Under the pieces are notes generated by a model. The model ran no database searches, was not told where the DNA came from, and saw only the letters and a list, made by a program, of their open reading frames with translations. A program made the position numbers and the translations under genes. From the IMG/VR virus record IMGVR_UViG_3300023174_000037: a DNA stretch of 64,000 nt. The stretch is one strand, 5' to 3'. This document shows positions 16,732 through 48,537 of this stretch, one piece after another. This stretch comes from a virus. Its lineage: Duplodnaviria > Caudoviricetes. How positions within the stretch are numbered: the first letter of the stretch is position 1; every line of letters begins with the position of its first letter.

Positions 16732-16769
16732 ATGTTTTATATATCATTAAACTTTGACGGGTGGTATTA

Positions 16770-16970
16770 AATGCTCACTTCAAGATACCATTCCGGGGCA
16801 CGACTCCCATAATATCTAGCCCAGCAGCCGGGCACACCTGAAGTAACGCTAACGTTCCTAAGGTAGGTGTTCTATTCTTTTGGAGGACAACAGTAAGATG
16901 GATCACACCAATCAGTTTGAGCGATGTATCCAGCGTAGGCCACGCCACAAACATACATAGCCAATGCACA
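16770..16970 (-). ncRNA. candidate structured non-coding RNA
   Basis: At least four helices; several need G-U pairs that exist only on the minus strand (see findings). Confidence 0.55.
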
Positions 16971-16980
16971 AATAATATTT

Positions 16981-17052
16981 TTATACAGGGCTGTAGGGGT
17001 TCTTTGTAGTGTCATAACCATCGTCCTCTGGGTATACTGGATAAGGGTTCAT
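16981..17052 (-). CDS. 23 aa micro-ORF MNPYPVYPEDDGYDTTKNPYSPV
   Basis: ATG overlaps the TGA of the deaminase gene; hand-translated. Confidence 0.6.
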   Translation of the reverse strand: MNPYPVYPEDDGYDTTKNPYSPV

Positions 17053-17681
17053 TTTCCATCCACGTGTAATTGACTGCCTTTGTTGAAGCTGGGGCTAAAT
17101 GGACTCTGTGCCACACGCCCACCTTTGCTTTGACTCCATGCATAACCAGCACGATGACCTGAACAGTCTTTGGTGCAGGTTGATCCTAAGAAACTGAGTT
17201 CGTTTAGATCATCTTTTAAAAATGTATCAGCAAAGGCTTTGCATAATTTTTCAATTTTGGGATTGCGAGTAATTTCTATGTGATACTGTTTACGTATGCG
17301 TTCCTGGCTAGGATCTTGATAGCCGGCATAAACTTTATGAACACCAACATCGTCAACAAGATCACTACAGTTAATGCCCGCACGTTCGTCCATGTCCTGA
17401 GTGCATGGGCTACAAGTTGTGATAATAATGCTACCAGCAGGAATCTCGCCAAAGCGGGCATAGTAACTGTCTATGGCTGCACGTTCACCGTGAACACGCT
17501 TGCCATCTTTGGTAGGATAATTGATGCCTACTACACAATTGTTATCAGGATCTAACACTGCGGCTGCTACCATACCTAGGTCTTGATCTTTTTGTTGGCC
17601 TTGAATGACCATTTCGCAAAGACGCACTAGAATTTGATCTAGCTTGTTGTGATTGCTAATTTGAAAATCTGATATCTTCAT
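17049..17681 (-). CDS. cytidine/deoxycytidylate deaminase-fold protein with a C-terminal Cys module
   Basis: HGERAAI (HxE) and CSPC (CxxC) zinc motifs; tail CTKDCSGH after LNE. Confidence 0.8.
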   Translation of the reverse strand: MKISDFQISNHNKLDQILVRLCEMVIQGQQKDQDLGMVAAAVLDPDNNCVVGINYPTKDGKRVHGERAAIDSYYARFGEIPAGSIIITTCSPCTQDMDERAGINCSDLVDDVGVHKVYAGYQDPSQERIRKQYHIEITRNPKIEKLCKAFADTFLKDDLNELSFLGSTCTKDCSGHRAGYAWSQSKGGRVAQSPFSPSFNKGSQLHVDGK

Positions 17682-20600
17682 TAGGCACCAAGAATTTGTC
17701 GAACTTGATTGACATAAGCACTGACATCACTGGTGCCAATTTCATCTACGTCACCCACATTGTAGGCCACTTCCTCTGCGGCCTGCATGACCTTGTCGGG
17801 ACCAAACTTCATCAACAGGTCTGTGTGTGCAACCATGATACGATTTAAGATAGCACGTTCAACTGCTTCACTGGCAGTGCTGGATTCTTCTCTAACAGGA
17901 TCTTTTAGCTTGCCGTAACGTGCTTCTAAATCTTTAAGAGCTTGTTTAATAATTTGTTTGTTGGCTGGATTAGAATCAACTGCCATCATACGGAATAACT
18001 TGTCGCGTTGATCCAAATACTCTTTGCGTGTAGTGGGTTCTTTCATCAAGCCTTCCGCCACACCTTGGTCTTTGTGTTTCTTAACGTCATTGGCAAATTG
18101 TTTTTTGGTTGCCTTTATGATTCCTGCAAAACGTTTGTCACCACGCTCAAAGTTGCCTGCTTTGTCGGCAGCACCAGCATCAAGTGCTGCGGCCTGTTTG
18201 TATTGACTTAATTTTTCATTGCTTAATTCATTTACAGTAGGGTTAGCACCGGTCAAGCTCACAGTCCACTTCTTACCGCTTGTAGCAGATTTCTTTTCTG
18301 CCCAACGACGCATGCCGTTTAGGTAAGCACGTTCTTCGGCACTGTCGGCGTAGCCTTTGCCTGGCACAACTTTCCAAACTTTACCGTTGATGGCAATGGC
18401 AATGTTGTTTCGCTCGTGACCTAGTTCGTGTTGCAGTTCTTTGCGTTTGAACTCACGACGCTCGTGATCACCTAGGCCTTCGCCCATTTCCATGTCCTTA
18501 CGATCTTTAGCACGTTTACGAGCATAGTCAGTCTGTGGATTCTTGGGTACGGGTTTAACCGGACGGCCAGCATCTACGTCACGCTCGCGTTGACGACGTT
18601 TTTGATAATCTGTCTGTGCTTCCGCCATACCTTTTGGTTTTTTGTGATGCTTCTTCATGTTGATAGCAATGGCCGCCTGCTGTGCTGGATTGGCAGCTTC
18701 GTCCAGTTGATCATCTGAGAAAGCCATAAAGTCATATGGTCCCCAGGGTTGGCCTGTGCGACCGTCATTGCCATCTAGATCACCATGCTCATAGTAGTCG
18801 TCACTGTAGATTTCTACACCGTCAAAGTCACTATTGTAATCAATATGTAGTTTACGTGTGACACCGTCGGGACAAACAATGCCACGATTCAGCAGGCGCT
18901 CTACGTCTTCTTTGCTCTTGATTCCTTTTTGCAAACTGCCAGTGTTGAATGTGCCATTGTACCAAGCACTGGCTAAAGCCTGGAAGTAATTGCCTGAGCC
19001 ACTTCCACCTGCAGGGGCAAATTCTTTTAAAGAGTTGCTTTTTGCTTTGGCAGCCGCTTCACGCTTCTTGCGGAAGATCTCACGGAAGTAATCATCATCT
19101 TCTTCCGGGCTGTAAGGATATGGATTGTGGTCACTACTGGGTCGTTTACGAGGTATATCTCCAGGACGGTCGTAATCAATGCCCGGCAAATCTTCCGGTC
19201 TAGCTTCTTCAACTTTGCCGGCGTTACGAGCTTTCCATGCAGTGGCATAGGCAATAGCTTTATCTTTGTCACTTAACCGGCCGTCTTTGCTCAAACTCTT
19301 TTTAATATGCTTGACCATACGTTCAGCTTTGGCACCAGGAGGAGCCACTTCTGTTACACCTTTGGCCTTGGCTTCTCGATCCAAATCTAGTCTACGTTGT
19401 AGGACAGCCGCTTGGTCAACATCTTTGTTCATTGACAAATCTTGTAAGGCTTTGCGTTTGGCCGCATAATCACCTTGAGGATCCTTTGAATTTAGTGCTG
19501 TTTCGGCTACCCGGTGGTTTATGCTCTCACCACCACCGTCTCCGCCGCCGTCACCTGATTCGCCGCCTCCATAATATGCATAGCCAGGAAAGAAATAACC
19601 TCCCATTGCTTTTGAAGATTTTTTCTTTTTCTTTTTCTTGCCTTCTGCTACACCTTCATCATACCAATCATTTTCTTCCTCTTGGTCAGCGTAATCATTA
19701 TAAGCAACATCACTTAGGTGCATACTGTGTTTGCCGTGATTGTATAAGTCCACAATAACAAATGAGCCACTTGGACTGAAATCATATATCTCACCAGTCT
19801 TGCCTTCAAACTCATTGGGTGCTATTACCACAACTGGATCGCCACGTTGTAGGCGTTGGCCTTCGTTTATAGCTTCTGCTGCTCGTTTTAAACTCTGAAC
19901 AGGCGGTTGTGTTTCTGCATCGTTGTCTGGAAATAAGTCAACCACATTACCACCTCTCATGCTAGCGGGTGCTGGATTATTGTTAATACCTTGAACTTGT
20001 CTTGGTTGTGACAAACTCCGAGCCATTTGACTCATCGCATTGGATTTTGATTTAAATTGTTGCACAGGCTCAGCTGGTTCAGCTTTGGCTGCAGGTTGGG
20101 CTTGGGGTTCTGCATCTGCAGGAGCATTTGGAATTAAATTAATTGCTCGAGATTGCGATCTATCAGTAGTATCAGTGCCGTCGGACTGACCTTGTCCGCT
20201 CATTTGGCCAATGGTCTGTGCTAGTTTTGCATTGGTTTGTTCTACATTTGCTAGTTGTTGTTCCAGACGGTCGTTTTCATTATCTAAACTGCCAATTTCT
20301 TTGCCTTGTTTTCGATCCAGAGCCACTAGCTGTTGTAGCAGTCGATCTTGTTCGGTGTTGGCACCTTTGATAGCCGACAATTGTTGTTGGCTTCGCTCGT
20401 TGGAATCTATTTCACTTTTGGCCACAGCTTCCACATCGCTTCGCGCCGCAGGATATTGAGCACGAAGTTTTTGTAACTCTCTAGCAACTTTAACATCGCC
20501 AGCGGCTACATCCGAATTGGAGTTAAACTTTTTTTTTTCTTGTAGTGGCAGTTCGCCCTGGGTAGGAATGCCTGGAAGTTCGGGCTGGACTGCACTATGC

Positions 20601-21376
20601 CAACCTAATCGTTTCAAAGTGGTCACGACTTCATCTGCGCTGGGCAATACACGATAGATAAAATGATTTTTCATTTGATCATTTTCTAAGCCATCGTAAT
20701 AGTCGCTGATCAAGTCAAGGCCTTTTTTATCTAAATGAATGTTGTCTTTGGGGTTAGGAAATTCTAATGTAACACTAGGAATATTACCCATGTTGGCTTT
20801 AAGTAATCGTTGGAAGTTGCCTACACCAAATGCTCTAGGCGACTGTGGGTAATCTCCATATGGGCTTTTTTCTTCACGAAATGCTTCTGGTGGGTTTTCT
20901 TTGAGCATACGCTCAACTTGTGCAACATAAGCACTGACATCACTTGAACCAATTTCGTCAACATCGCCCACATAGTCGGCCACATTGTCAATGGCTGCAC
21001 CTACCAGTTCAGGACCGTATTGTTTTAATAAATCGTGACGTTGCATCAAAATACGACGAGTGATTGCGCTGGCCACTGGACTGTCGTGTTGCTCATCCAA
21101 CTTGCCTTTAGTTGTGCCCAGACTTCCTGTAGGGTCCATACCGGTGGCAGGATTAATTTTAAAGTAGCTGTCACGTTCGGCTTTGATCTTTTGAAATTGT
21201 TTCTTAAGTCCAGCCAATGCCGCAGGATTCTTTTTGTAAGCAGGTTCTTTGGCACTATCTAACAGTTCTAACATTCGCATGTTTAGGTCATCAATGCGGC
21301 GAGCTTCAAGGTTGTCTACTGCACCTTCTTTGAGTTCTCGTTCATATTTTGTGTTGAATAGGTCTAATGCAAACAT
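17681..21376 (-). CDS. 1231 aa modular putative internal head polyprotein
   Basis: String of short unrelated modules, many starting right after [VLIM]xE; one domain is duplicated at both ends. Confidence 0.75.
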   Translation of the reverse strand: MFALDLFNTKYERELKEGAVDNLEARRIDDLNMRMLELLDSAKEPAYKKNPAALAGLKKQFQKIKAERDSYFKINPATGMDPTGSLGTTKGKLDEQHDSPVASAITRRILMQRHDLLKQYGPELVGAAIDNVADYVGDVDEIGSSDVSAYVAQVERMLKENPPEAFREEKSPYGDYPQSPRAFGVGNFQRLLKANMGNIPSVTLEFPNPKDNIHLDKKGLDLISDYYDGLENDQMKNHFIYRVLPSADEVVTTLKRLGWHSAVQPELPGIPTQGELPLQEKKKFNSNSDVAAGDVKVARELQKLRAQYPAARSDVEAVAKSEIDSNERSQQQLSAIKGANTEQDRLLQQLVALDRKQGKEIGSLDNENDRLEQQLANVEQTNAKLAQTIGQMSGQGQSDGTDTTDRSQSRAINLIPNAPADAEPQAQPAAKAEPAEPVQQFKSKSNAMSQMARSLSQPRQVQGINNNPAPASMRGGNVVDLFPDNDAETQPPVQSLKRAAEAINEGQRLQRGDPVVVIAPNEFEGKTGEIYDFSPSGSFVIVDLYNHGKHSMHLSDVAYNDYADQEEENDWYDEGVAEGKKKKKKKSSKAMGGYFFPGYAYYGGGESGDGGGDGGGESINHRVAETALNSKDPQGDYAAKRKALQDLSMNKDVDQAAVLQRRLDLDREAKAKGVTEVAPPGAKAERMVKHIKKSLSKDGRLSDKDKAIAYATAWKARNAGKVEEARPEDLPGIDYDRPGDIPRKRPSSDHNPYPYSPEEDDDYFREIFRKKREAAAKAKSNSLKEFAPAGGSGSGNYFQALASAWYNGTFNTGSLQKGIKSKEDVERLLNRGIVCPDGVTRKLHIDYNSDFDGVEIYSDDYYEHGDLDGNDGRTGQPWGPYDFMAFSDDQLDEAANPAQQAAIAINMKKHHKKPKGMAEAQTDYQKRRQRERDVDAGRPVKPVPKNPQTDYARKRAKDRKDMEMGEGLGDHERREFKRKELQHELGHERNNIAIAINGKVWKVVPGKGYADSAEERAYLNGMRRWAEKKSATSGKKWTVSLTGANPTVNELSNEKLSQYKQAAALDAGAADKAGNFERGDKRFAGIIKATKKQFANDVKKHKDQGVAEGLMKEPTTRKEYLDQRDKLFRMMAVDSNPANKQIIKQALKDLEARYGKLKDPVREESSTASEAVERAILNRIMVAHTDLLMKFGPDKVMQAAEEVAYNVGDVDEIGTSDVSAYVNQVRQILGA

Positions 21377-21386
21377 TTATTTTTCC

Positions 21387-22082
21387 TTATGCTTCGTCAA
21401 TGTAATCTGCTGAGTCGTTGATCTTGCGACGACGTGCCGCGAACATTTCCAAGGCCATCTCAGCCTCATCTAAATTTTTAAAACGTGTGGGCAATCGACG
21501 ATTGCCGTGGCGGATTTCAAAGCCAGTTTTTTCGTTGCCGTGAACTTCAAACATGCCACATTCGTTGGTAATGACTTTAACTGCAGCTGATTCTTTCATA
21601 CTGACACCTTCTTCACCTGGTGGCTGTTGGGCAGGAACAACACCACTCAAGGCCGAGTCTAGTTCGCCTTCGGTTTCTTTGACTTTTTGTTGTTTGGCAA
21701 CAAGAGCACGGTCCACTGTGCTTTTTTCTTTTATATCAGTGTCTTCGTGCTTTTTGTCTTTGAGATCTGAATCTTGGCGAATTTCGTCAGTGACCGTTTT
21801 TAAATAGTCAGCAAATGAAGATTTAACTCGATCCAAAACATCTTCACTGGTAATGGCTTCCTCCAACGGCTCTTCGTCATTTTCGACACTTTCTTCGGCA
21901 CCACCGACTAGTTTGCCAGCCATGGGATTTTTAGGATCTGTTTTGGCTGTGAGCACTGCTACAGTTTTGGGTTTGAATGTAGGGCCAAGTTGGTTTACAC
22001 TTCGTTGATTCGTGTTTAATCCTTCTTCGATAACACGAAGACGTTCAACAATGGTGTATATACTGTTATGGTCGTGTGCCAT
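21387..22082 (-). CDS. hypothetical protein (possible head core/scaffold-like)
   Basis: 231 aa, Glu-rich, within the polyprotein cluster. Confidence 0.7.
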   Translation of the reverse strand: MAHDHNSIYTIVERLRVIEEGLNTNQRSVNQLGPTFKPKTVAVLTAKTDPKNPMAGKLVGGAEESVENDEEPLEEAITSEDVLDRVKSSFADYLKTVTDEIRQDSDLKDKKHEDTDIKEKSTVDRALVAKQQKVKETEGELDSALSGVVPAQQPPGEEGVSMKESAAVKVITNECGMFEVHGNEKTGFEIRHGNRRLPTRFKNLDEAEMALEMFAARRRKINDSADYIDEA

Positions 22083-22085
22083 AGA

Positions 22086-22526
22086 TCATGCCCTTGCGTC
22101 CTTCAAATAACTCTTTAACTGCCACATGTATTTGCCATGACTGCTTTGGCGTTCTGCGGCAAAGTTTGCAACATCTTCACGACCTTCGGCACTGGCAGCA
22201 TCAAATACTTGCTTGCTCATGTCGACCATGGTCTGTGTATCTGCGAGTAATTCTTGTAACATTAATCGGGCACGAGGAACCTTGATCTGGTCCTGTATTT
22301 GTGATAATTCTTGGAAACGATTTAGGCTTCCTGGGGCATATTCTTCTGTGGTACGGATGTATTCAGCAATGGGATCCACAGCTGAATAAGCGTCTTCGTA
22401 GATTTTTTGGAAAAACTTGTGTAATTGACCAAAGTCTGGACCCTCCACGTTCCAGTGAAACATGTGGGCCTTTAAGTAATAGGCAAATGTTGAGGCCAAG
22501 TAAGTTTTTAACAAATCTGCTAGCAT
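22086..22526 (-). CDS. dps: Dps/ferritin-like DNA protection protein
   Basis: HMFHWNVEGPDFGQLHKFF, DPIAEYIR ferroxidase pattern, WQL. Confidence 0.92.
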   Translation of the reverse strand: MLADLLKTYLASTFAYYLKAHMFHWNVEGPDFGQLHKFFQKIYEDAYSAVDPIAEYIRTTEEYAPGSLNRFQELSQIQDQIKVPRARLMLQELLADTQTMVDMSKQVFDAASAEGREDVANFAAERQSSHGKYMWQLKSYLKDARA

Positions 22527-22732
22527 TATTTCTTCCGTTTATACTTTTTATACTCTGCAGGCGTGTTGGGCGTTGCATCGTCAGTAGTGTATTTAGCGCC
22601 AGAAAAGAAAGAACCACCATTTCTTGATAATGTAGTGCCTAACGGCATACTAACTGTGGCTATGCTGCCGCTGGTAGTGCTGGCCGTACTGGCGCCATCT
22701 TCTTGTAAGTTAACAAATTCATGCAATCTCAT
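22526..22732 (-). CDS. small hypothetical protein with CTS-like N-terminus
   Basis: MRLHEFVNLQE followed by a Ser/Thr/Gly-rich segment and a basic tail. Confidence 0.7.
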   Translation of the reverse strand: MRLHEFVNLQEDGASTASTTSGSIATVSMPLGTTLSRNGGSFFSGAKYTTDDATPNTPAEYKKYKRKK

Positions 22733-23028
22733 TGGTATGGGGCCTCGTCAATAATTGTTAGAACATTATTTTTTATAGTTCCAGGACCAAAATCCACACG
22801 CATATCTGTTACAGTTAGCCAGGCCAAGTGCGGCAAAACCAATTCATGACGTATTGTGTATTCACCAGGTTCGGCTTCAATTTGTAACAGTTCTTCAAGA
22901 TAATGCTCGGTCCAGCGCCAGGTGCGTTCAGCAAATAATTCATCGTTGACATAGGTACGATAAATGGGTTGAAAACTTTCCCATTCGCAATCAATATTAC
23001 ACAGCACCCGTATGAATTGTTTGGACAT
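22729..23028 (-). CDS. hypothetical protein
   Basis: 99 aa; TAAATA lies 4 nt before the ATG. Confidence 0.75.
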   Translation of the reverse strand: MSKQFIRVLCNIDCEWESFQPIYRTYVNDELFAERTWRWTEHYLEELLQIEAEPGEYTIRHELVLPHLAWLTVTDMRVDFGPGTIKNNVLTIIDEAPYQ

Positions 23029-23046
23029 GCTGTATTTAGTAGCGTT

Positions 23047-23235
23047 TTATTTGACTTCTTTTACACTGCCAACATGCCATTCTTCTACACCGTATTGTGC
23101 CCGCATTAACCTACGTGCTTCTGTGGCATTGGCGGCGGTTACAGTGACATCAATCCAGCCCACATAGTTGGGTTGTTGTATCCGGACCTGTGCAGTCCAT
23201 AATTTATACTTGGGGTATATGTCTCGGGCTTTCAT
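23047..23235 (-). CDS. small hypothetical protein
   Basis: MKARDIYPK start overlaps the stop of the upstream gene (ATGA). Confidence 0.7.
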   Translation of the reverse strand: MKARDIYPKYKLWTAQVRIQQPNYVGWIDVTVTAANATEARRLMRAQYGVEEWHVGSVKEVK

Positions 23236-25256
23236 CGTCCAGTCCATTTAGCTATCATACTAACACGGTTACTGCTATAAATGCCAGTGCCACGTCGTGT
23301 GCTACGCATACTACGTCGACCGGGCTCTACAGGAAATGTGTATCGAGTCCATGTGGCATTTTGATCTACAATTTGATCACCGCGTTTCTGGCGATAATCT
23401 TCAGTGGGCTCCATTGCATAACCCTTGACTTCTACACCCGGAATTGAATTTAACATGAGCCACATGGCTTGTCCAAATTTGGTCTGTGTTTCTCCGGTTT
23501 CAAGCGTGAGTTTAAGGATCGTGAGAGCAATACCATACAATGCTTTGCCCAGCCCGCGCCCACGATAATCAGGATCATTGGCCACAGTTTCTACACGCCA
23601 GGTTTTAAGCGGATCAAGGGTGGCACTAAGATCAAGTTCTGCGACCAATGTATCTCCATCAAAGATCATGATTTCCAAAAACTCAGGATCTTTTCGGTTC
23701 ACCGCATAAGAGAATTGACTACCACCTGGCAAGGGTTTAGTTTTGGGCTTTTTTGCCATGGGCATCAGTGTGTCCTTATCACCAAAGTCGCCTTGTGGTA
23801 TGCGGGCTATTTCATCTAACTCTGTTTCCCATACACGTTTACTACCGCGATTCTTATTCCAAAAATGTTTTCCGGCATCAGTCTGCTCGTGACTGCGTTT
23901 TACTTGATAGCCAAGATCTTTGGCATAATCATACATGACAGCCGCAATACCTTGTCCACGATATGCTTCATCAACTAATAAATCCCGTGCTATTAACGTT
24001 TTGCCCGCAACATCAAATACTACTCGTGCTAGATTACGGCCATGTGTATCTGCATCAATTGTTAATTCATTTCCATATTTGTGTGCTGTTAAATCAAGTC
24101 CATCTCTATATGCTTGTTTAACTGCAGGTTCGGCATCTTCAATGATGCCAGTGCTACGACGTAAGCGTAAATCAAAGTCTACATCAGAAATATAGTTACG
24201 AATAAACTTTTCATAATACTGTTGTGCAAGAGCCGGAGTATCAGCTTCAAAACGATCTACTATCTGTGAGCCGCCAGCAGGACGATCAGCGTGATAAATT
24301 TCATAGCCTTTGTTCAAGCGTTCTCTAGCTTGACTCATACGGTCCATTCTGTTACTGACTTGACGGTCAGCACGACTCAAATAACTTTGTAATCGTTCAT
24401 CGCTGATTTCATTGACATCTTGTTTACGAACTGGCTTCCAATGGAATACTGTCATGCCCATGCTGGGATATTCTTCATGCGCCCACTTTGGTCCTAAAAT
24501 GTTCTGCACCACTGGTACAAAGTATTTGCGATACAGGTTGGCGCGGTTGTCACCTTTGGCAGTAAATGATACGCCAGGCGGGCGAGTCTTGGCAATGTAT
24601 TCAGGCAATTGTTGTTTGATCACGTTGAGCACTGTGCTCAATATTCGAACAGTTGACTTACTAGCACTTGTAGGCTGACTTGGAGCATCATAGTCGCTGT
24701 TTACAGTAAATGTAATGTGTAAGGTACCGTTAAATTCGCTGCGATCAAAGAACACATCCACCCAATGTCCATCCACAGTAGAGTGAAACAAACTGCGTTT
24801 TCTTTTGCGGTTGGGTTTGTAGTCAGCTGGTGCGTTGCCTAATTCTGTAAGTTGTTGAACCGGCGCCCAGGCCTGTATATCTGATCTATTCAACAGGTTG
24901 GCGGCGGCCCAAGCTCTGTGATTGCCATCTATGATCCAACCTTTGGAGTCTACCACAATAGGTCTACGATCCACAAAGTTTGCACTATATTCACCCGCAT
25001 GGTCAGGGTCTACAGTTTGCACTCGATTGTATGGATCTTGTTCGGGCTCTTGTTCTTCGTCATCGTACTCTTGATCAGGTATGTGCAAACTGTTTAATGC
25101 AACACGTCGTAGTTCATACTGCGGATAGCGCAGGATCAATTTTTTTAAAAATCCACCACCCTGTTGGTCTTTGGGGTGTATGCCATCTACATAATTCCAC
25201 ACCTGTTCAGCTGACACAACTTTGGCAGATTCAATGACAAATTCACGGGCTTTCAT
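23232..25256 (-). CDS. 674 aa modular protein: ParB/Srx-like domain plus two GNAT acetyltransferase domains
   Basis: PIVVD...IIDGNHR (ParB); YRGQGIA and YRGRGLG (GNAT motif A); N-terminus MKAREFVIE. Confidence 0.8.
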   Translation of the reverse strand: MKAREFVIESAKVVSAEQVWNYVDGIHPKDQQGGGFLKKLILRYPQYELRRVALNSLHIPDQEYDDEEQEPEQDPYNRVQTVDPDHAGEYSANFVDRRPIVVDSKGWIIDGNHRAWAAANLLNRSDIQAWAPVQQLTELGNAPADYKPNRKRKRSLFHSTVDGHWVDVFFDRSEFNGTLHITFTVNSDYDAPSQPTSASKSTVRILSTVLNVIKQQLPEYIAKTRPPGVSFTAKGDNRANLYRKYFVPVVQNILGPKWAHEEYPSMGMTVFHWKPVRKQDVNEISDERLQSYLSRADRQVSNRMDRMSQARERLNKGYEIYHADRPAGGSQIVDRFEADTPALAQQYYEKFIRNYISDVDFDLRLRRSTGIIEDAEPAVKQAYRDGLDLTAHKYGNELTIDADTHGRNLARVVFDVAGKTLIARDLLVDEAYRGQGIAAVMYDYAKDLGYQVKRSHEQTDAGKHFWNKNRGSKRVWETELDEIARIPQGDFGDKDTLMPMAKKPKTKPLPGGSQFSYAVNRKDPEFLEIMIFDGDTLVAELDLSATLDPLKTWRVETVANDPDYRGRGLGKALYGIALTILKLTLETGETQTKFGQAMWLMLNSIPGVEVKGYAMEPTEDYRQKRGDQIVDQNATWTRYTFPVEPGRRSMRSTRRGTGIYSSNRVSMIAKWTGR

Positions 25257-26134: not shown

Positions 26135-27109
26135 TTAGCAATTCCAACGACGACGTGCCTTGCAAATAGCTTTGTCTGGAGTCTTGGCACATGAAATATT
26201 GTGCATCTTCATTTGTCCACGACTGCGTGAGCAATAACTCTTTCTACGCTTTGACGCTTTGCTACCTTTTTTCAACTTTGAAGGCTTGGTAGTCACTGCT
26301 GTTTGTAGTTTGCTACCAGGATGCTCGCGGCGATATGTTTTAACTGCTTTACGACTCATACCGTCTGTCTTGTCTCGATTGTTGGCTTTTTGCCAGGCTT
26401 CGGATTCCATTAATGGGTCAGAGGTCACAGCAAACACATACAGTTCATCTTCTGTGAGACTTTCTAAATCCGCCCAAACTGCTTCTGCATCAACACCATT
26501 GTGTTCAGCAATGGTTTCAATGATACTCTCAATAAGATCAAATTCTTCATGCAGTTCAGCCCTGGCTTCCATACTTAGGCCTGTGCCCAGTTCAAGAATT
26601 CTGCTGAGTTCATCCATGTTCATCTCCTTGTCTTCATTTTTTACACAGTTTGGCACACGTTTACCAAACAGTTCTTTCATGCCTTCTTTGTGATAGCCTT
26701 TCCAGCAGGCTTCATCTAGATTTTGATTGTGCTCGTGTGTTTCACACATGCCACAGTCTTCACAGACCATTTCCATTTCAACACTTTCATTGTGTTTCTT
26801 TTTGCCTGCACAATGCGCCCGTTGGCTAAAACCTTTGGGATGGCTACAGTTAATACTGCTTTTGTATTTCTGACTCCACTTTTCATCCAGTTGATCTACA
26901 CTCTCACTTTTGTTGCCATAATTGGCCGCGCCTTTTTTACGGCATTGTACCAAGCGTCCTGACGCATAGGCACTGGGCCAAACTTTTGCTGAAGCCTTGA
27001 CCTTGTAATAGCAAGCATCTTTCTTTTCGGCAAGTATTAAATCTGTAAATGCAGGACCGCCGCATTCTGGGCAGGTTTGATGAGATTCAAATAAGTCAGT
27101 TATAATCAT
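26135..27109 (-). CDS. 324 aa modular protein of basic Cys-containing mini-domains
   Basis: CPECGG, CEDCGMC, CWKGY...PNCV and other modules, each following FE, LAE, LDE or LME. Confidence 0.75.
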   Translation of the reverse strand: MIITDLFESHQTCPECGGPAFTDLILAEKKDACYYKVKASAKVWPSAYASGRLVQCRKKGAANYGNKSESVDQLDEKWSQKYKSSINCSHPKGFSQRAHCAGKKKHNESVEMEMVCEDCGMCETHEHNQNLDEACWKGYHKEGMKELFGKRVPNCVKNEDKEMNMDELSRILELGTGLSMEARAELHEEFDLIESIIETIAEHNGVDAEAVWADLESLTEDELYVFAVTSDPLMESEAWQKANNRDKTDGMSRKAVKTYRREHPGSKLQTAVTTKPSKLKKGSKASKRRKSYCSRSRGQMKMHNISCAKTPDKAICKARRRWNC

Positions 27110-27366
27110 TTTTTCTTAGTGGCCACGTTGATGGCCGCTCCTTTTCTATTGGCGTTAGGATCCTGCCTGCGTTTACGAGCTGCCGCTGATGCACGACCTT
27201 TTTTGCCCAGGGCATGTGCTTTGGCCTGTGGCAAACATTTGGGCTTGCCTTCTTTTTCAGATCCACGGGCACAGTCACCACGAATCTTGCCATCGGGCCC
27301 AAAACGTACCCATTTTTCTTTGAACCAGTCACGTAGATTTTCAGTTACAAACTCACTGGCTCTCAT
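27106..27366 (-). CDS. small basic protein with CTS-like N-terminus
   Basis: MRASEFVTE-NLRDWFKEKW...; very Lys/Arg-rich. Confidence 0.8.
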   Translation of the reverse strand: MRASEFVTENLRDWFKEKWVRFGPDGKIRGDCARGSEKEGKPKCLPQAKAHALGKKGRASAAARKRRQDPNANRKGAAINVATKKK

Positions 27367-30300
27367 TTTTTCTTTCCTCTACGCATATTTATTTGCCAAC
27401 GTGCCAGCTGGCCTTTACGACCCGGTGCTTTTGCAGCCTTTTCTAATTGAGCCATAGTGGCACCTTTGGGTATGCCGTGACGCTGACTGTCTCCAGGACG
27501 TCCTGGACCTTTACCGTCAGCAAAGTTTTCCGCCACACCCGACGCTTGTTTTGTCAGCGTATAAGTTGCGCCACCTGGCATATCACTTCTTTCCAAATCG
27601 TAACCGCTGCCGCTGATGTAGCGTCGAAGCATTCTATCATACAGTCTAGCTCTACTGCCGGTAGGGTCATCCTCTTTTTCTGCACTGAAATTCAACCGCG
27701 CTGGTTTACGCTTGGCGATGAATTGTTGCATGGCAGCGAGCACAGTGGCAAACACTCGTGACGCATCACCTTCACCGGTGATCTCCATGTTTTCGTCACG
27801 CTCAAACTCCACCATCCAACTGTTGTCGCCTTGAGCCATGAACAGCACAATTAGTTCACTGCCGTCATCCAAGTCAGCAGTGGCATGCCAGTCACCATTT
27901 TGTTTGCGCCATTCAACGGCATAAGGTTGATCAAAGGCTTCGTTTATTGTCTCGGTCGGAGTCCATTCAAAACTAGAAACTGGCACTGAATATTTGTCAC
28001 TGAGTTTTTGTAGCAGTGCATCTAGCGTGGCAACAGGAATATTTTTAGCAACTACACGTTGGCCACGACTGCCTGGAACTGGACGATAGTATACATCAAC
28101 ATGTTCAGGATCAATGATGCGTGATTCTGCTACAGCAAATTGATTGCCCAATTGTTTTGCTAAACTTTTTTGTCTATTGATATTGGCCGGAGTGCCTGTA
28201 CCACTTTGTTTGTGATCAAACACACCATACAGTTTGATCACAGTAGGGTCACGACCATCGACACTGTAGAACAAACTGAGATCTCTGGTTAAATGCACAT
28301 GGCGCAACTTTGGCACTTTGGCCAAAGGACCAGCTGCAACAAACGGTGTGTCTTTGCCCCAAGGACGACCAGGGTTGTCGGTTTTAAATGCTAAAAATTC
28401 CTGTATCTTTGCTGGCAAGTTGGGCAGTTGGTTAGACTTGTCAGCTACTGTTTGATCAAACATACTGCTCTTTCTAATTTCAACATTATTGCCAGACTCT
28501 GACAGCATCCATGCACCTTGATCTATTTCCAGCAACAGGTTGACCAAGGCAGGATCAATACTTTCGATCATGACCGGTACTACTTCAATCTGTGTCATGT
28601 CCGCATCAGCAGGTCCATTTTGTTGCAACCATAAAGAGGCTATTCTGTTAGCATCGGCTTGACTGTTGCCTACGCCACGGAATCTATACAGTTCTTGCCC
28701 GGTATCAGTATCCAAGATTCGCCACTGTCCACTAAAACTGTTGCCTGGTGGTGCCGAACTGGCCTGATTTGTGGCGCCAAACAAGTCTCTGAATGAATAA
28801 TCAATGTTGCGGCCATCGGTTCTGTCCTGCGGGAAGTTCTGTTCTATATCCAAGGGCACTTCGGGAATGGATCCAGTTAATCTAGCCTGTAAGTCTGCGC
28901 TGTCTTGGGCGTTGTCCACAGCCTGGTTAGCATCTGCAGCCTTGGTCATTGTTGGAGCTGAGTCAGTGGTTTTGGGTCTCACGTCAAACAGATCAGGTTG
29001 TTCAGCGCCTACGCTCTTTAACCAATTTTTGCCATCTGTTTTCGCATCAGCAGCAGTGTCGCTTAAGAAGGTATGAACCACATGTCCGGTTTCTTTTTCG
29101 TACACTTCCCAATAAGGAACACCACGTTCGTTTGTGTCCTGTTTGGGTTTTTGTTGTTTAGGGTCTGTAATACGCTTGGCCAACTTGGCACGTGGTGTCA
29201 GTGTTTTAGGATCCACATACGGACGCACATTGAATCCTATGTTTTGATTAAGATACTTGTCAAATACTTTGTCAGCGGCAGCACCTTTGTTTGCAGCTTG
29301 AACTATTTCAAGTGTTGCACCAGTTTTAACATCATACACTTCCCACTGTTGATTGTCACTCATGTTGACCAATTGGTATTCACCCGAGTCCAAGGCTTCA
29401 CGACCGTATTTCATCCATACTCTATTTTTAACTTCGTCTTCTTGGAAGCCACGATATTCAGCACCTGGTACTGCGGTCCAGACGCCGTTGACCTTTTGAT
29501 ACAACTTGAAATACTGATTTATTTTCTTTTCATTACCTAGAGTTTTTTCGGCCCAGAGTTTCTTGAGTTGTTCTTTGTCTAGTTCACCTGCGGCATACTG
29601 ACTAAACAAGGCCAGTTGACTGTCGCCTTCGGGGGCAATTAATTTGTATAATTTTTTAGCATACTCTCTACGATCTGTGCTGGCGCTGGCAGCAATTTGC
29701 ATGGCACGGGCATAACGCAACATGGTACTTTGTAATTTTTCAGGATCAGCTGATTCTTCAGCCAACCAATCGCCTCCGGCACTGCGGAATTCTATGTAGC
29801 CATCTTGTATGTGAGCACTGGTATACTTGCCTTGTCCTACACCCTTTTGAATTTCTCGTTGTGCTAATTCAAGCAAGCCATGTTGCATCAACTTCAAAGC
29901 ACCGGCTGGATCTGCACGACCTGATTTGAGATTTTCACGGAAGCTCTTCATTGCTGACTTGGTGTAAGTGTTGGCTTCGCGGCCAAATTGTTGTAGAACA
30001 TATTCGTCACCTAGGAACAGAATAAGTTTTAGGTAGTCAACATCACCACCTTTGTATGGAACACTAACGCCCATGTGTAGGCCAGTTGAATCGTTAGTGT
30101 AAGCATTGCCTTCTGTGCTGTTGGCCCAGTCTGTGACTTGTTGTAATTTTTCCAAGGCCACTAGTAATGGCATTGGAGGACTTACTATTTCCAAACCGTA
30201 GTCTTCACGATCATCTGGACTCAAACTTGAATCTGGCTCTACAATCCATTGGCCTTCTTTACGTGTGGTACTGTGATAATTTGAACTTACTTTGACTGGC

Positions 30301-33300
30301 ATGTCTACAACACCTTGTAAACTGTTTCCAATATCATCCCAATCACGTGACCCATCATTGCCGCCGCCACCGGTCATGTAGGGCCAGTCTAAACCGTACT
30401 CACTGGCCACATCACTCATGTAGCGTAGGCCCGCATCATCAAAGAAACCAGAGTCGTCATCTATCTGATAATTGTCGCGGAAATCATCCAGTGCGGCATC
30501 CCAGTTTGCACCTTCTTTTCTTACTTCGTCGGCTACTAGATCATCCAATAGGCCTTCGGCTTCGCTTTGTGCATCTAGGTATTTTTCATACAGGGGATTT
30601 TCTTTTGCGTAGGCTTGCTGTTCGCTTGATCGGGTAAATTTAGGAGCAGTTTCTCCAGCTTTGATAATTTCATTTATTTCTTCATCTGACAAGTCCAACA
30701 AGGCCAACTGTTTTTGTATCTCGTCGTCCTCATCCCAATCACCTTCGTCAACCAGCACTTTACGAATCAAATCTTCGGCTTCGTCTCTAAATTCTCGAGT
30801 CATTTGTTCGTCGTACCACTCGTAATAGGCTTCATCCAACTGTTCTTGTAGTCGTGCTTCTTGCCTAGAACTTAGTCCACCATATTCGCCGTTGTTAAAG
30901 AAGTCTATAATCTGACTGATACTGCGAACACGTTCGTCGGCATCATAGTCGGGTTCCATTTCGTAATCACTGTCACCATTGTTGGTGGTGTCACGGAAGA
31001 TCAACTCAGCTTCAAATCCGGCACGTATACCTTCGGCTTCTGGACTAGTGGCCCATTTCATCAGGGCCGACGGTGACATTTTAACTTCGTCCAACTGTTC
31101 ACTTTCGGCCAAGGCAAACAGTTTCTTTTCTGCTACCTGCTTGTTGAACATTGTATAACTACGCAAGAATTCTTTTTCTTGTCGTGTAAGTTCGCGGCCT
31201 TGTTGGACTTTGGCCACTAAAAATTTATAATAGTCTGCTTTGTCACGATTCTTGGATACCGGTGCTTGAATATTTTCTTTAAACTGCGCCAGCTCTAATG
31301 CTAATTTTTCAAACAGGCCATTGGCCTTGGCAATCTGCGGAACGCCTTGCTTGTTTGTTTTGAGATTTAATTTGTTGGCTTCTTTGCCAATTTGTCCCGG
31401 CTTGATGTCCACTGTGAGTGCCATACTATAACGTGGATCCTTGGCCTGTTTCTTTGTGGGAATATAACCCGATGCACCTTCGTTGGTTGGCCCAGACGGC
31501 TTTTGCTGATTTTGTTTTTGTAGTTGATATAGCCGACTTTGATTTTGTGCGTTGACTTCACCGCGCTGAGCACGAATAAAATTGTTTAGTTCTTGAGCAA
31601 CGTCAGCTTGTATTACTGTGCTATTGTATTGTTTGGCATTGTAAAGAACACGAGCCGCATCCATTGGCCGCATGCCTTGTTGAGTAGCACAACCACTGAG
31701 ACTGCCTCCGCCGATGATGCAGGCACTTAATGCGGCCACAGCCGATCCTTTAAGGCCTTCATCAACATCTTCTTCGTGTAGGTTGTTGGCTTGTTTCTTT
31801 GTGGAAATGTAACTTGATGCTGATTCAGTGACAGAAAGTCCATGTTTTTGAATGAACTCTTGCATTTTGTTTTCAATCCATTGATCTTCTTGACCAGCCA
31901 TTCTTATTTTATATAGATTTTTGTCATTGTATTCATAGCGACTTTGGTCTTGAAAGTATTTGGAGATTTGTTCAAATGCAGCAAAAAGCTCTGGAGTCTT
32001 GGTATACTTTGATCGTTGATAGTTGGAATATTTAGAAATTTTAGTTTGTGCCCATTTTGCCCGCAGATCTTTTTCTGGAACTTGATAGTCGCTAGCTATT
32101 TTTTCTACTTCTTTTTTTATTGTTTCTGGAGTAACATCCAAGTTTCTGTCAACTCGATAGGTTATGATCTGTATTAATTTTTTGTAGGCATCTTCTAGTC
32201 CAGATTTGGGCCTGGACATAACCGCAGGATTCTTAACAGTTGAACCAGTGACGGATATGGCTCGTTTGACTTGGTTGACCAACTGATCATAAGTGTAGGT
32301 CCGCGGGGCCACACTGCGATAAATCAGTTGATCACCTTGGTACACATAAAAATATTCACCTTTGACCACTACCTTGTAGCCCAATATACCATAGGCTTTT
32401 TCAATTTCTTCTTTTAAGTTTTCTGCTTGACCCACCGCAAAGTATTCTGGATGTAGTCTAGCATAGTCACGCATCAACACACCAGCTCTGGCATTGGCTT
32501 CGTTTTCATACGGACTGCCAGTTTCGCCAGCATCAGTAGGAACCGACTCACGTTCATGTTGATGACGATGTGTAAGTTCGTGTGCCACTGTTCTGAGCAC
32601 ATCCATAATATGGCGATGTCCCCAGGCCACTTCTAATAGATTATGATCGTCGATGTAACGACCAAATGTTTTGTTTCTTACTGACCATTGTGGATCTTTA
32701 CGCAACTTGACCATCGGCATGCTTTTGAGTTTTAATTCTTTAAAACAAAAATCAATAAAGTCCGTTAGTATTTCTTCATCAGACAGTGTCGCAGGTGCCG
32801 CTTCAAGAGAAACTGTGTCAGCTTCGACCACTGTGGGGGTGCGGAATCCGTATGTTACTCTGGGTTTGGTTGTTTTTTCTGCTAAACTAAATTCTCGATC
32901 CTTGGCAGCATTTCTAGCATCATACAGGTCTTTAATTAGTCCTTGACTACGCAATATTTTGAATGCTAAATTTTCTGGACCAAACTCGCCATGTGCTTCT
33001 AATCCAGTTTGGCGCATCCGTTTAATTTTTTCTGCCAGACTAGTCATGCGTTTTAAACTGCCGCTCTTGATAGCTGACTCAATTTGGCGGCCAACTTTTT
33101 CAAACTTGTTGCGTGTGCTGGTGTCGTTGACTACGCTCTTGACTCTACGTGGAACCTGTATCCAGTCGTTGTTCAACAAGGAATATATGCCCTGACTGAT
33201 GTGCGGCTTGTCAGCATCTTGCACATACAATTCCACATCAGCACCACCAATCTTAATATCGTGTTGTTCGTTATACTGAAACTTTTTGGCATCAAACAGT

Positions 33301-33581
33301 TCACGGTAAACAGGGTTATCTGGCATGTCTACTACCAAGTGCAAATCAATATCGCTGTTGGGAGTATATGTGTAAGCCGCATTTGATCCGCTGATAGTAA
33401 TGTCTTGAATTGCTAGATCTGTTACGCCTAAAAACTCACGAAAATCGTCGGCTATTTCCAGCAGGCGTTCACGCACTTCAGGCCGCAAATGTTCACGATC
33501 GTCCCACAGGCGTGGATTTAATTGATCATTAAATTTAACAGCGTCTTCAAGATTATAAGAGTCTAATTCCGTGATGTTCAT
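27363..33581 (-). CDS. 2072 aa multidomain polyprotein (pol-beta NTase, zincin, amidoligase, RelE/YafQ-like and others)
   Basis: SGSN...SDIDLH; HELTH...YENEA; GFEAE, EPDSSL, LEIVSP, STGLH, IEFRS; RHVHLTRDLSLFY. Confidence 0.85.
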   Translation of the reverse strand: MNITELDSYNLEDAVKFNDQLNPRLWDDREHLRPEVRERLLEIADDFREFLGVTDLAIQDITISGSNAAYTYTPNSDIDLHLVVDMPDNPVYRELFDAKKFQYNEQHDIKIGGADVELYVQDADKPHISQGIYSLLNNDWIQVPRRVKSVVNDTSTRNKFEKVGRQIESAIKSGSLKRMTSLAEKIKRMRQTGLEAHGEFGPENLAFKILRSQGLIKDLYDARNAAKDREFSLAEKTTKPRVTYGFRTPTVVEADTVSLEAAPATLSDEEILTDFIDFCFKELKLKSMPMVKLRKDPQWSVRNKTFGRYIDDHNLLEVAWGHRHIMDVLRTVAHELTHRHQHERESVPTDAGETGSPYENEANARAGVLMRDYARLHPEYFAVGQAENLKEEIEKAYGILGYKVVVKGEYFYVYQGDQLIYRSVAPRTYTYDQLVNQVKRAISVTGSTVKNPAVMSRPKSGLEDAYKKLIQIITYRVDRNLDVTPETIKKEVEKIASDYQVPEKDLRAKWAQTKISKYSNYQRSKYTKTPELFAAFEQISKYFQDQSRYEYNDKNLYKIRMAGQEDQWIENKMQEFIQKHGLSVTESASSYISTKKQANNLHEEDVDEGLKGSAVAALSACIIGGGSLSGCATQQGMRPMDAARVLYNAKQYNSTVIQADVAQELNNFIRAQRGEVNAQNQSRLYQLQKQNQQKPSGPTNEGASGYIPTKKQAKDPRYSMALTVDIKPGQIGKEANKLNLKTNKQGVPQIAKANGLFEKLALELAQFKENIQAPVSKNRDKADYYKFLVAKVQQGRELTRQEKEFLRSYTMFNKQVAEKKLFALAESEQLDEVKMSPSALMKWATSPEAEGIRAGFEAELIFRDTTNNGDSDYEMEPDYDADERVRSISQIIDFFNNGEYGGLSSRQEARLQEQLDEAYYEWYDEQMTREFRDEAEDLIRKVLVDEGDWDEDDEIQKQLALLDLSDEEINEIIKAGETAPKFTRSSEQQAYAKENPLYEKYLDAQSEAEGLLDDLVADEVRKEGANWDAALDDFRDNYQIDDDSGFFDDAGLRYMSDVASEYGLDWPYMTGGGGNDGSRDWDDIGNSLQGVVDMPVKVSSNYHSTTRKEGQWIVEPDSSLSPDDREDYGLEIVSPPMPLLVALEKLQQVTDWANSTEGNAYTNDSTGLHMGVSVPYKGGDVDYLKLILFLGDEYVLQQFGREANTYTKSAMKSFRENLKSGRADPAGALKLMQHGLLELAQREIQKGVGQGKYTSAHIQDGYIEFRSAGGDWLAEESADPEKLQSTMLRYARAMQIAASASTDRREYAKKLYKLIAPEGDSQLALFSQYAAGELDKEQLKKLWAEKTLGNEKKINQYFKLYQKVNGVWTAVPGAEYRGFQEDEVKNRVWMKYGREALDSGEYQLVNMSDNQQWEVYDVKTGATLEIVQAANKGAAADKVFDKYLNQNIGFNVRPYVDPKTLTPRAKLAKRITDPKQQKPKQDTNERGVPYWEVYEKETGHVVHTFLSDTAADAKTDGKNWLKSVGAEQPDLFDVRPKTTDSAPTMTKAADANQAVDNAQDSADLQARLTGSIPEVPLDIEQNFPQDRTDGRNIDYSFRDLFGATNQASSAPPGNSFSGQWRILDTDTGQELYRFRGVGNSQADANRIASLWLQQNGPADADMTQIEVVPVMIESIDPALVNLLLEIDQGAWMLSESGNNVEIRKSSMFDQTVADKSNQLPNLPAKIQEFLAFKTDNPGRPWGKDTPFVAAGPLAKVPKLRHVHLTRDLSLFYSVDGRDPTVIKLYGVFDHKQSGTGTPANINRQKSLAKQLGNQFAVAESRIIDPEHVDVYYRPVPGSRGQRVVAKNIPVATLDALLQKLSDKYSVPVSSFEWTPTETINEAFDQPYAVEWRKQNGDWHATADLDDGSELIVLFMAQGDNSWMVEFERDENMEITGEGDASRVFATVLAAMQQFIAKRKPARLNFSAEKEDDPTGSRARLYDRMLRRYISGSGYDLERSDMPGGATYTLTKQASGVAENFADGKGPGRPGDSQRHGIPKGATMAQLEKAAKAPGRKGQLARWQINMRRGKKK

Positions 33582-33587
33582 AGATAG

Positions 33588-33593
33588 TATTTA
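33588..33593 (-). promoter_or_regulatory. TAAATA late-promoter-like core heading the polyprotein cluster
   Basis: TAAATA-6 nt-ATG immediately downstream of a terminator. Confidence 0.6.
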
Positions 33594-33600
33594 CCGGATA

Positions 33601-33628
33601 AACAAAAGCCGCTAACTTAGCGGCTTGT
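33601..33628 (-). terminator. intrinsic terminator
   Basis: Perfect inverted repeat AAGCCGCTAA-C-TTAGCGGCTT followed by TTTTGTTT on the minus strand. Confidence 0.85.
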
Positions 33629-33648
33629 GTAGATTAAACAAAATAGAT

Positions 33649-35366: not shown

Positions 35367-35382
35367 TGTAATATATTTATGG

Positions 35383-46202: not shown

Positions 46203-46380
46203 ACGATTATTTATGGTGATTTCGATCTAAGCGGAAAGTTCGAATATCTGGAGTATAGCCTAATACTTATGACATTTTAGAATCATTTACTACCCACACT
46301 AAACTTTGAGATCTATACCCGTAAATACTTGGACAGCAAAAGGTGCTGTCAGAAGTAACTCAACTACAATGGAGTATAAA

Positions 46381-48489: not shown

Positions 48490-48537
48490 CCGACCTATAT
48501 TTAACAGTGCAAGTGGATATTCTCTTAAATATAGCTA

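Follow-up and report, generated by a model that had tools for sequence, protein, structure and literature searches.

A prohead-protease-type motif at the module boundaries of putative cargo polyproteins in an uncultured giant phage

The 64,000-nt stretch of DNA analysed here (the window, in whose numbering all positions are given) belongs to the Caudoviricetes record IMGVR_UViG_3300023174_000037 and carries a putative cargo gene cluster of ~16.5 kb (17049-33581), the genes of interest being all on the minus strand (Table 1). The cluster products are 2072, 86, 324, 293, 674, 1231 and 210 aa long (g2072, g86 and so on), in addition to those of small genes. The large proteins are mosaics of unrelated modules, and the short motif [LIVM]xE, with Glu at P1 and the bracketed residue at P3, is concentrated at the boundaries between the modules and is specific for Glu. 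Furthermore, the modules are shuffled among relatives, several genes start with a leader ending in the same motif, a late-promoter-like motif precedes the cluster, a relative encodes a matching head protease, and homologues of two of the modules have been detected in virions.

Injected phage proteins are hard to recognise from sequence, and since they act before phage gene expression they stand out as candidates for roles in counter-defence and host takeover. A sequence-only reading of the window had proposed that the cluster encodes effector polyproteins that are packaged, cut in the head and delivered at infection. That proposal is partly supported: every in silico prediction open to testing favoured it, whereas the targeting of the proteins, their cleavage, their retention and injection, and the part played by each module are what we infer from this evidence.

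Mosaic architecture and exchange of modules

The open reading frames of 2072, 1231, 674, 324 and 293 aa named in the sequence-only reading are present where it placed them, on the minus strand. The module set of the cluster comprises a nucleotidyltransferase, a minimal zincin, an amidoligase, DUF6934, a ParB-like domain, two GNATs, a GH19 muramidase and small basic modules. Hundreds of partial homologues were found for g1231 and for g674, and in eight related loci the same modules occur as separate genes, as inserts or in other fusions. Shuffling across related phages, which had been named as a check of the polyprotein idea, was assessed over these eight loci and ~360 homologues, and fusions, fissions and swaps were all seen; for example, GNAT 1 is fused to a g293 homologue and g674 aa 1-317 to DUF6934.

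The modules keep a constant register with respect to the Glu that precedes them. Direct pairwise comparison showed that the two pairs pointed out earlier, VNE-LSNEKL with VNE-ISDERL and TNE-GASGYIPTKKQ with VTE-SASSYISTKKQ, are real and in equal register. Similarly, the FAPSPER module (the N-terminal module of g293) follows MRLRE, MRLYE, ELDE or LKE; the ISDERLQ module follows VNE internally and MRLHE or MRLYE at the N-terminus; and DUF6934 (AFDQPYA) follows IILE in a stand-alone gene, VTE in a different fusion and INE in g2072. The basic tail (NFADG) is preceded by VAE, LQE, VEE, LSE, LAE, LTE or MAE, and the amidoligase block by LDE in g2072 and by the leader MRWQDISSKKLTE in gp196 of phage Atu_ph07. 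P2 is free to change where P3 and P1 are preserved, for instance in leaders of the P0002 family (that of g1231).

Four contigs from freshwater metagenomes (DNA runs X3 and X4) join 18066-19762, in the g1231 region, to 26028-27190, in the g324/g86 region, thereby skipping 6-9 kb, with matching sides of 25-38 nt. They may be module-swapped relatives or repeats rather than variants of this genome.

The motif at homology breakpoints and in structural linkers

The sequence-only reading cautioned that [VLIM]xE is common by chance, and the overall density of the motif is indeed ordinary, at 1.0-1.7% in the four largest proteins and 4.6% in g324, within the 0-5% of other window genes. Therefore position is the test, and it is position that carries the signal: the comparison of boundaries with interiors that had been called for gave an enrichment both at homology breakpoints and in structural linkers.

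Breakpoints were obtained by all-against-all BLAST within the P0001 (g2072), P0002 and P0003 (g674) families, with ~120 metagenomic homologues each; alignment ends were kept where both proteins continue, and 7 residues were considered at each breakpoint start. The motif was present in 222 of 384 distinct start contexts for P0001 (58%, vs 11% at random positions), 327 of 720 for P0002 (45% vs 10%) and 106 of 201 for P0003 (53% vs 9%). The controls [LIVM]xD and [LIVM]xK were at or below the null at these breakpoints. When only the three largest proteins of the window were considered, [LIVM]xE fell in 19 of 46 breakpoint zones, against 6.8 expected (p about 1e-5). Breakpoint contexts are related by descent and their counts are not independent; the structure and register tests do not depend on these counts.

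Low-pLDDT linkers make up 14% of the residues in two AlphaFold models (g2072 aa 1-400 and g674) and contain 9 of the 17 sites, against 2.45 expected (p about 2e-4). The g674 model has five domains; sites are present in its N-terminal leader and in each of the four linkers between domains (aa 9, 138, 283, 373 and 477/482), the three remaining ones being buried in secondary structure. In the g2072 model, low-confidence linkers part the nucleotidyltransferase (aa 17-236) from the zincin (aa 268-383), and the LKE junction 3' of the latter (aa 389-391) sits in a linker that is disordered according to pLDDT. Chance or compositional bias as the source of the motif is ruled out by the Asp and Lys controls together with this structure-based test. 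At the collected junctions, which were selected as [LIVM]xE, P3 is V in 40%, L in 35%, I in 12% and M in 12%.

One alternative is that the chains are intact polyvalent proteins, packaged or not, whose [LIV]xE linkers are flexible joints or recombination sites for module swaps and are never cut. Such an account agrees with the unprocessed transfer of N4 virion RNA polymerase, ArdC and TraC1 (PMC5512222), with the frequent Glu-richness of linkers, with the stretch shared around the GYIP motif, which could act as a recombination joint, and with the joints between 18-19.8 kb and 26-27.2 kb in the contigs of the DNA runs. However, the enrichment concerns Glu only, P2 is free to vary where P3 and P1 are kept, and the DNA sequences of the joints differ among contexts. 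Moreover, free-standing modules retain a 5-9 residue leader ending in [LIV]xE. The intact alternative is accordingly regarded as rather unlikely, though it is the strongest of the three considered.

Leaders and the head protease

Leaders are found in g674 (MKAREFVIE), g86 (MRASEFVTE), g293 (MRLYE), g68 (MRLHE), g324 (MIITDLFE) and g2072 (MNITE), and g1231 has LKE at residue 17. Each is conserved in its family apart from P2, which varies, and free-standing copies of modules carry MRLxE or MKAREFVxE leaders. A site lies within the first 10 residues in five of six leader-bearing genes, compared with about 5 of 57 other window genes, and g68 is a further case.

Judged by their residues, these leaders are like the capsid-targeting sequence of T4. 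The T4 internal proteins carry a 10-residue targeting sequence, MKTYQEFIAE, that is removed by gp21 (PMC8442874); this protease cleaves after L/I-x-E, and Asp at P1 blocks processing (PMC9026906). The small cluster modules are very basic (pI 9.4-11.7), and in this they are likened to the T4 internal proteins (PMC8442874). Pfam and PHROG searches with the cluster proteins gave no match to T4 IPI, IPII, IPIII or Alt, so that the likeness in sequence is confined to the leader.

A relative, G001, encodes a g2072 homologue at 80% identity as well as a head module with a T4-type portal (Portal_T4), an S77 protease (1.4e-24), a scaffold-like protein in which LxE is frequent and a Gp23-type capsid protein. 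In the latter, LRE occurs 12 residues before the start of the Pfam match, and motifs of the [L/V/I]-x-E type are found in the capsid propeptide, the scaffold and the protease of G001. No S77 protease was found in the fragments of four other relatives, which are 38-51% complete, and the capsid protein family was found in 1 of 10 related contigs. According to a survey, S77 proteases occur in jumbo-phage groups 1 and 2 (PMC7824862).

Homologues detected in virions

Atu_ph07 gp196 is a homologue of the g2072 amidoligase module (32% identity, E about 8e-25). It is a stand-alone protein with its own leader, encoded two genes from the portal gene, and was identified in purified virions as a protein of 57.94 kDa with 14 peptides and 30% coverage (PMC6102473); the calculated mass, 57.93 kDa, confirms the identification.

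The second case is T4-GC119 of marine cyanophages, with which g86 and g324 are collinear, four modules being in the same order. For S-SM1 virions, 13 peptides of T4-GC119 were reported, and the protein is classed there as structural (PMC3037559, Table S8). Its gene lies between gp16 and gp17, in a "hyperplastic region", and has a length of 276-2985 nt (Sullivan 2010, PMC3037559; Millard 2009). The module starts of T4-GC119 are preceded by x-x-E as well (VLE, IQE, VKE, IEE and LDE).

The zincin of g2072 as a possible alternative protease

The minimal zincin of g2072 was matched by Foldseek to jannalysin, abylysin, selecase, IrrE and SPRTN (prob 0.97-1.0), whereas the Pfam match to Peptidase_M78, at relaxed thresholds, is weak. 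With its invariant HExxH, found in all 36 aligned homologues, and its modelled fold, the peptidase is probably active. This domain might itself cut the chains, its own and others in trans, either before packaging, in the head or after injection. The conserved minigluzincin/IrrE/SPRTN-like fold and its place in the block aa 1-390, which is present in all 120 listed g2072 homologues, are in keeping with this role, as is the published model in which such peptidases autoprocess polyvalent proteins, e.g., P1 DdrB (PMC5512222). On the other hand, cleavage at Glu combined with a hydrophobic P3 is the hallmark of gp21 and its family and is no known property of these zincins. In addition, the same motif occurs in the G001 capsid propeptide, scaffold and protease, and in T4-GC119, although a search of the genomes of the T4-GC119 cyanophages gave no match to the zincin part of g2072. 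What favours the prohead protease over the zincin is that the motif is specific for Glu, that free-standing modules have leaders and that the motif recurs in capsid protein, scaffold and protease; cutting by the zincin is considered unlikely, a little more so than chains that stay intact.

Expression signals and genomic setting

The cluster begins after an intrinsic terminator and with its own TAAATA, as had been proposed: the hairpin with its T-run, claimed at 33601-33628, was confirmed slightly inside that range, and so was the TAAATA 5' of the g2072 start. No Shine-Dalgarno sequence lies between this TAAATA and the g2072 ATG. Hairpin, TAAATA and ATG are kept upstream of g2072 homologues in eight related contigs, including divergent ones with differing flanks, with a TAAATA-to-ATG spacing of 5-7 nt. 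The account of the unit thus stood for its genes and its first TAAATA, but did not mention the second TAAATA, before 23028, nor three small genes. Two runs of genes, 33581-23047 and 23028-17049, are translationally coupled.

A close layout, with TAAATA 4-7 nt 5' of the ATG and no Shine-Dalgarno sequence, was found at 48526-48540 (plus strand) and at 46202-46213, 35366-35379, 33581-33593 and 23028-23038 (all minus strand). Going by the motif, transcripts from these sites would be late-type and nearly leaderless. In five more window genes TAAATA lies 24-26 nt upstream and is accompanied by a Shine-Dalgarno sequence. The portal gene of a related contig has the close layout, like g2072, whereas on the same contig a gene for a 287-aa acidic protein and a laminin-G gene of the head-module region have the distant one with a Shine-Dalgarno sequence. 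The full T4 late consensus TATAAATA shows no enrichment, with 3 occurrences in the window against 3.1 expected, and the informative promoter signal is only the shorter TAAATA placed before start codons. Sigma-70-like promoters and terminators are at chance level in the region, except for the hairpin at 33606-33626.

The T4-type family B DNA polymerase at 11289-13946 has its best matches in Phosso (50% identity), Atu_ph07 (47%) and Rak2-like phages (42%), which places the phage, by this sequence, on the T4/Rak2/Atu_ph07 side of the giant phages. A search among cultured phages gave no near-identical DNA for the window, and a 42-mer looked for in IMG/VR had no exact match there, so that the phage is known only from metagenomes. 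The stretch 16900-33700 is nearly complete in lake and freshwater metagenomes from three studies and partial in more. One RNA library from freshwater has contigs that agree with seven parts of the cluster at 0 or 2 mismatches, and with an eighth less exactly; such matches can prove neither transcription nor its timing.

Between the deaminase-like gene and the next gene, 317 nt (16732-17048) are free of open reading frames, in a genome where coupling of genes is the rule. No terminator-like site was seen there. On the other side, 3.4 kb upstream of the cluster, the gene at 37021-39297 (minus strand) encodes a 758-aa protein with two AAA+ ATPase regions that matches phrog_4871 ("ATP-dependent protease", 4e-233). 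A survey suggested that Clp-like chaperones of this phage group may help proteins to enter heads (PMC7824862).

This setting bears on a third alternative, in which the cluster proteins are late intracellular enzymes and no virion cargo, with substrates that might include the DNA of the phage, proteins of its virion or the envelope of the host. On this view the conserved N-terminal peptides would have a role in translating near-leaderless mRNAs or in some other sorting step, and any processing would be due to another protease or to the neighbouring AAA+ chaperone system. The metabolic neighbours (DNA polymerase, deaminase, ferritin, cytidylyltransferase and the Clp-like ATPase at 37021-39297) suit this alternative, and near-leaderless mRNAs could constrain the first codons. 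However, the leaders differ in codons and length and yet keep the [LIV]xE ending, the internal junctions bear the same motif where translation initiation has no role, and homologues of two modules were detected in purified virions. Enzymes acting only within the cell are therefore thought very improbable.

Proposed pathway and points against it

In the pathway that is proposed, the cluster genes would be transcribed late from TAAATA promoters, and the leader (MKAREFVIE, MRASEFVTE, MRLxE or MNITE) would carry each chain into the prohead's scaffolding core. As the head matures, a gp21-type serine protease (S77) would cut after Glu at [L/V/I]-x-E in the flexible inter-module linkers, sites inside folded domains being protected as in T4. 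The leader would be removed and the chain freed as separate modules, i.e., nucleotidyltransferase, zincin, amidoligase, DUF6934, ParB-like domain, two GNATs, GH19 hydrolase with its hydrophobic segment and small very basic modules. These modules would remain in the filled head, exit with the DNA at infection and then act on host defences, on host proteins or nucleic acids, and on the cell wall. Since the products would be modules and not genes, modules could be split, fused and swapped at the sites in evolution. Taken jointly, late expression, leader targeting, S77 cutting at linker [L/V/I]-x-E, retention in the head and ejection with the DNA have, in our judgement, slightly better than an even chance of being correct.

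Several observations weigh against this pathway. The first concerns the motif itself. Of the [VLIM]xE rule stated in the sequence-only reading, Glu at P1 held, whereas an invariably hydrophobic P3 did not, the window's own TNE being an exception. Before the GYIP module, Glu is at P1 in 66 of 66 distinct contexts, but P3 is L, I, V or M in 37 and T, Q, F or K in 29. Either the rule is looser than the L/I-x-E of T4 or some sites are left uncut. The Glu may also belong simply to the conserved N-termini of the modules. Furthermore, the gp21-type S77 protease is known from the relative G001, the window's own genome being beyond the reach of the search, and the cluster holds the conserved zincin described above. 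The cluster is set among replication and metabolism genes, distant from head genes, and it includes ferritin, g99 and g210, which have no leaders. Finally, detection in phage purified by polyethylene glycol (PEG) or gradients does not prove a location inside the head.

A wider proposal is advanced more tentatively, at somewhat less than an even chance: that phages of the T4 superfamily (freshwater giants, marine cyanomyoviruses with T4-GC119, and Atu_ph07) maintain a rapidly changing stock of injected effectors in the form of polyproteins cleavable by the prohead protease, in which a short leader takes the entire chain into the head, the unit in both function and evolution is the module between two [L/V/I]-x-E sites, and gene boundaries are nearly irrelevant.

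Comparison with known systems

Packaging, injection and proteolytic processing were already predicted for the polyvalent proteins (Iyer, Burroughs, Anand, de Souza and Aravind 2017, PMC5512222), which are likewise encoded by phages with portal-terminase packaging and combine in one chain many unrelated conflict-type domains, such as metallopeptidase, ParB-like domain, GNATs, nucleotidyltransferase and wall hydrolase; relatives of the cluster proteins add sigma region 4 and deaminase. With several unrelated effector-type domains per chain (the class is defined by 2-15), the characteristic domains and rapid mosaic rearrangement, the cluster proteins fit this architectural class, and what is new is the proposed processing rule. 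The cutter proposed for polyvalent proteins is an embedded metallopeptidase with no site defined (PMC5512222), whereas the cluster has [L/V/I]-x-E at module boundaries and on free-standing modules, matching the prohead protease, leaders like the T4 targeting sequence, and modules that move between neighbouring genes. Also different are the amidoligase and DUF6934 modules, which are not discussed there (the word "amidoligase" is absent from PMC5512222).

The cargo of T4, IPI-III and Alt, shares with the cluster a short leader ending in I/L-x-E, a T4-type head module with S77, here in the relative G001, small basic products and enzyme cargo (PMC9026906, PMC8442874). In contrast to the cluster chains, which reach 2072 aa and would be cut at about ten or more internal sites into different effectors, the T4 proteins have a single module and are cut once or twice, and they have no sequence homology to the cluster proteins. 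In the giant phages phiKZ, 201phi2-1 and SPN3US, a diverged gp21 homologue (gp175/gp245) cleaves many head-internal proteins of the inner-body and ejection type at Glu, often more than once per protein, and what results is ejected into the cell (PMC9026906, PMC5694885, PMC10052503). Their motif, however, is S/A-x-E, and the proteins that are cut are paralogous, have propeptides and serve in structure or ejection, unlike chains made up of unrelated enzymes; in the 66 contexts before the GYIP module, which were not selected for the motif, P3 is L, V, I, T, Q, F or K and never S or A. RNA-virus polyproteins of the picornavirus and potyvirus type are likewise single products cut at short repeated sites by a viral protease and evolve by gain and loss of modules, but the likeness is one of principle, with no homology, and here the products would be cargo delivered from a DNA-phage prohead, not replication proteins.

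T4-GC119 is annotated only as hypothetical or structural, and no published reading of it as a cleavable polyprotein was found. In the literature searched, there was likewise no description of the junction motif, the match to the prohead protease, the T4-like leaders, the exchange of modules between genes, or an extension to T4-GC119 or Atu_ph07 gp196. If the proposal is correct, leader plus [L/V/I]-x-E would be a sequence rule for the injected effector sets of thousands of uncultured phages, and would make the polyvalent proteins of an uncultured but very abundant group of freshwater phages readable as a catalogue of delivered effectors. The rule would also explain the extreme length variation of T4-GC119 in the gp16-gp17 hyperplastic region and open a direct proteomic test in the cultured phages Atu_ph07 and S-SM1; the system would be the natural parallel to T4 engineered to package foreign proteins via the targeting sequence.

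Individual proteins of the cluster

Table 1. Features of the cluster and its surroundings, in window numbering
Feature	Position	Strand	Description
Putative cargo gene cluster	17049-33581	minus	~16.5 kb
Intrinsic terminator	33606-33626	minus	ends upstream gene; 9-bp G+C-rich stem and T-run; loop changes in related loci
TAAATA	33588-33593	minus	late-promoter-like motif; 6 nt 5' of g2072 ATG at 33581; near-leaderless layout
g2072 (P0001)	27363-33581	minus	polyvalent polyprotein; conserved blocks aa 1-390, 701-1480 and 2016-2072, variable inserts between
Nucleotidyltransferase module	32874-33533	minus	g2072 aa 17-236; Pfam NTP_transf_2, phrog_36119; ANT/AadA/CD-NTase-like fold (AlphaFold and Foldseek)
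Minimal zincin metallopeptidase	32433-32780	minus	g2072 aa 268-383; invariant HExxH (H334, E335, H338)
Amidoligase block	29142-31088	minus	g2072 aa 832-1480; Pfam Amidoligase_2; starts after LDE (aa 830-832)
DUF6934 module	27549-27938	minus	g2072 aa 1882-2011; Pfam and PHROG; starts after INE (aa 1879-1881)
Very basic C-terminal tail	27366-27527	minus	g2072 aa 2019-2072; conserved, pI 11.7; starts after VAE
g86	27106-27366	minus	leader MRASEFVTE and single module; aligns with internal module of S-SM1 virion protein T4-GC119
g324 (P0004)	26135-27109	minus	small Cys-rich and basic modules, ends in DUF6321; module starts after LAE, LDE, LME
g293 (P0005)	25253-26134	minus	leader MRLYE, acidic module aa 6-86, LEE, hydrophobic Gly/Ala-rich segment, GH19 muramidase/chitinase
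g674 (P0003)	23232-25256	minus	leader MKAREFVIE, ParB-like domain, two unknown-function domains, GNAT 1, GNAT 2
Small gene	23047-23247	minus	62 aa from ATG at 23235, MKARD...; coupled to g674 stop codon; conserved in 5 related loci
Second TAAATA	23033-23038	minus	precedes g99 start at 23028
g99	22729-23028	minus	preceded by second TAAATA; syntenic in relatives; no leader motif
g68	22526-22732	minus	68 aa, leader MRLHE, basic C-terminus; overlaps preceding gene's stop; conserved in 8 related loci
Ferritin/Dps-like gene	22086-22526	minus	Pfam Ferritin 2e-21; syntenic in relatives; no leader motif
g231	21387-22082	minus	acidic, low-complexity; [LIVM]xE density 4.3%; syntenic in relatives
g1231 (P0002)	17681-21376	minus	polyprotein, mostly unknown modules; repeated 58-aa module near both ends
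g210	17049-17681	minus	dCMP/cytidine deaminase-like; no leader motif

More than 1100 metagenomic homologues of g2072 were found, 1300-2200 aa long and on contigs of up to 345 kb, and they differ by inserts at discrete points. Its nucleotidyltransferase module follows the MNITE leader, ends at an invariant L233-x-E235 and has stand-alone homologues in cyanophages and in Maribacter and Lak phages. By eye, a unit of ~45 aa (W-x-[IV]-[YL]-x-x-x-T-G ...) recurs several times in the region 28600-29600 (minus strand; aa ~1330-1650), and its copy number varies among homologues; it combines a Trp that is conserved with a Thr-Gly turn and, at its C-terminal end, a helix. A search of Protein Data Bank sequences with aa 1645-1870 gave no match, and the impression of a RelE/YoeB-like identity for aa 1690-1830, which that search did not support, was dropped.

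Hydrophobic Gly/Ala-rich segments lie directly after VDE in g2072 (aa 609-632; 31686-31757, minus strand) and directly after LEE in g293 (aa 87-110; 25805-25876, minus strand), and polyproteins of relatives have the same segment after LEE. The segments resemble a signal peptide or a glycine zipper, with a lipobox-like LSGC at the end of one of them. Cleavage, if it occurs, would place them at a new N-terminus, in g293 next to the GH19 wall hydrolase.

In g674, the last two domains are GNATs by both Pfam and fold. The ParB-like domain (PF02195) is recorded in homologues only, the window copy being below the Pfam threshold, and a Protein Data Bank sequence search with g674 aa 1-290 gave no match. 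Pfam and PHROG matches also identify GH19 in g293, DUF6321 in g324 and the deaminase in g210. None of the linker-flanked unknown modules of the cluster was named by Pfam at relaxed thresholds. In the relative L008, a g86 homologue is fused to a g324 homologue.

Junction sites of g1231 include LKE17, LDE95, VAE578, VAE625, VTE676, LKE785, LDE893, VNE1050 and VAE1108. The two copies of its 58-aa repeat (aa 101-158 at 20900-21076 and aa 1172-1229 at 17687-17863, both minus strand) are 55% identical, and both start a few residues after LDE or VRE.

The genes at 22526-22732 and 23047-23247 occupy apparent gaps of ~200 nt and are below the usual size cut for open reading frames. The leader of the former, g68, is MRLHE, MRLRE, MRLYE or MRANEFIVEE in the eight related loci. 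The ferritin/Dps-like gene may not be cargo. As for g210, the relative L011 encodes at 15093-16433 a 446-aa protein in which a dCMP-deaminase, a ParB-like domain, a second nucleotidyltransferase-like part and a basic tail follow the leader MILTDLFE; therefore the deaminase gene of the window may once have belonged to the same system.

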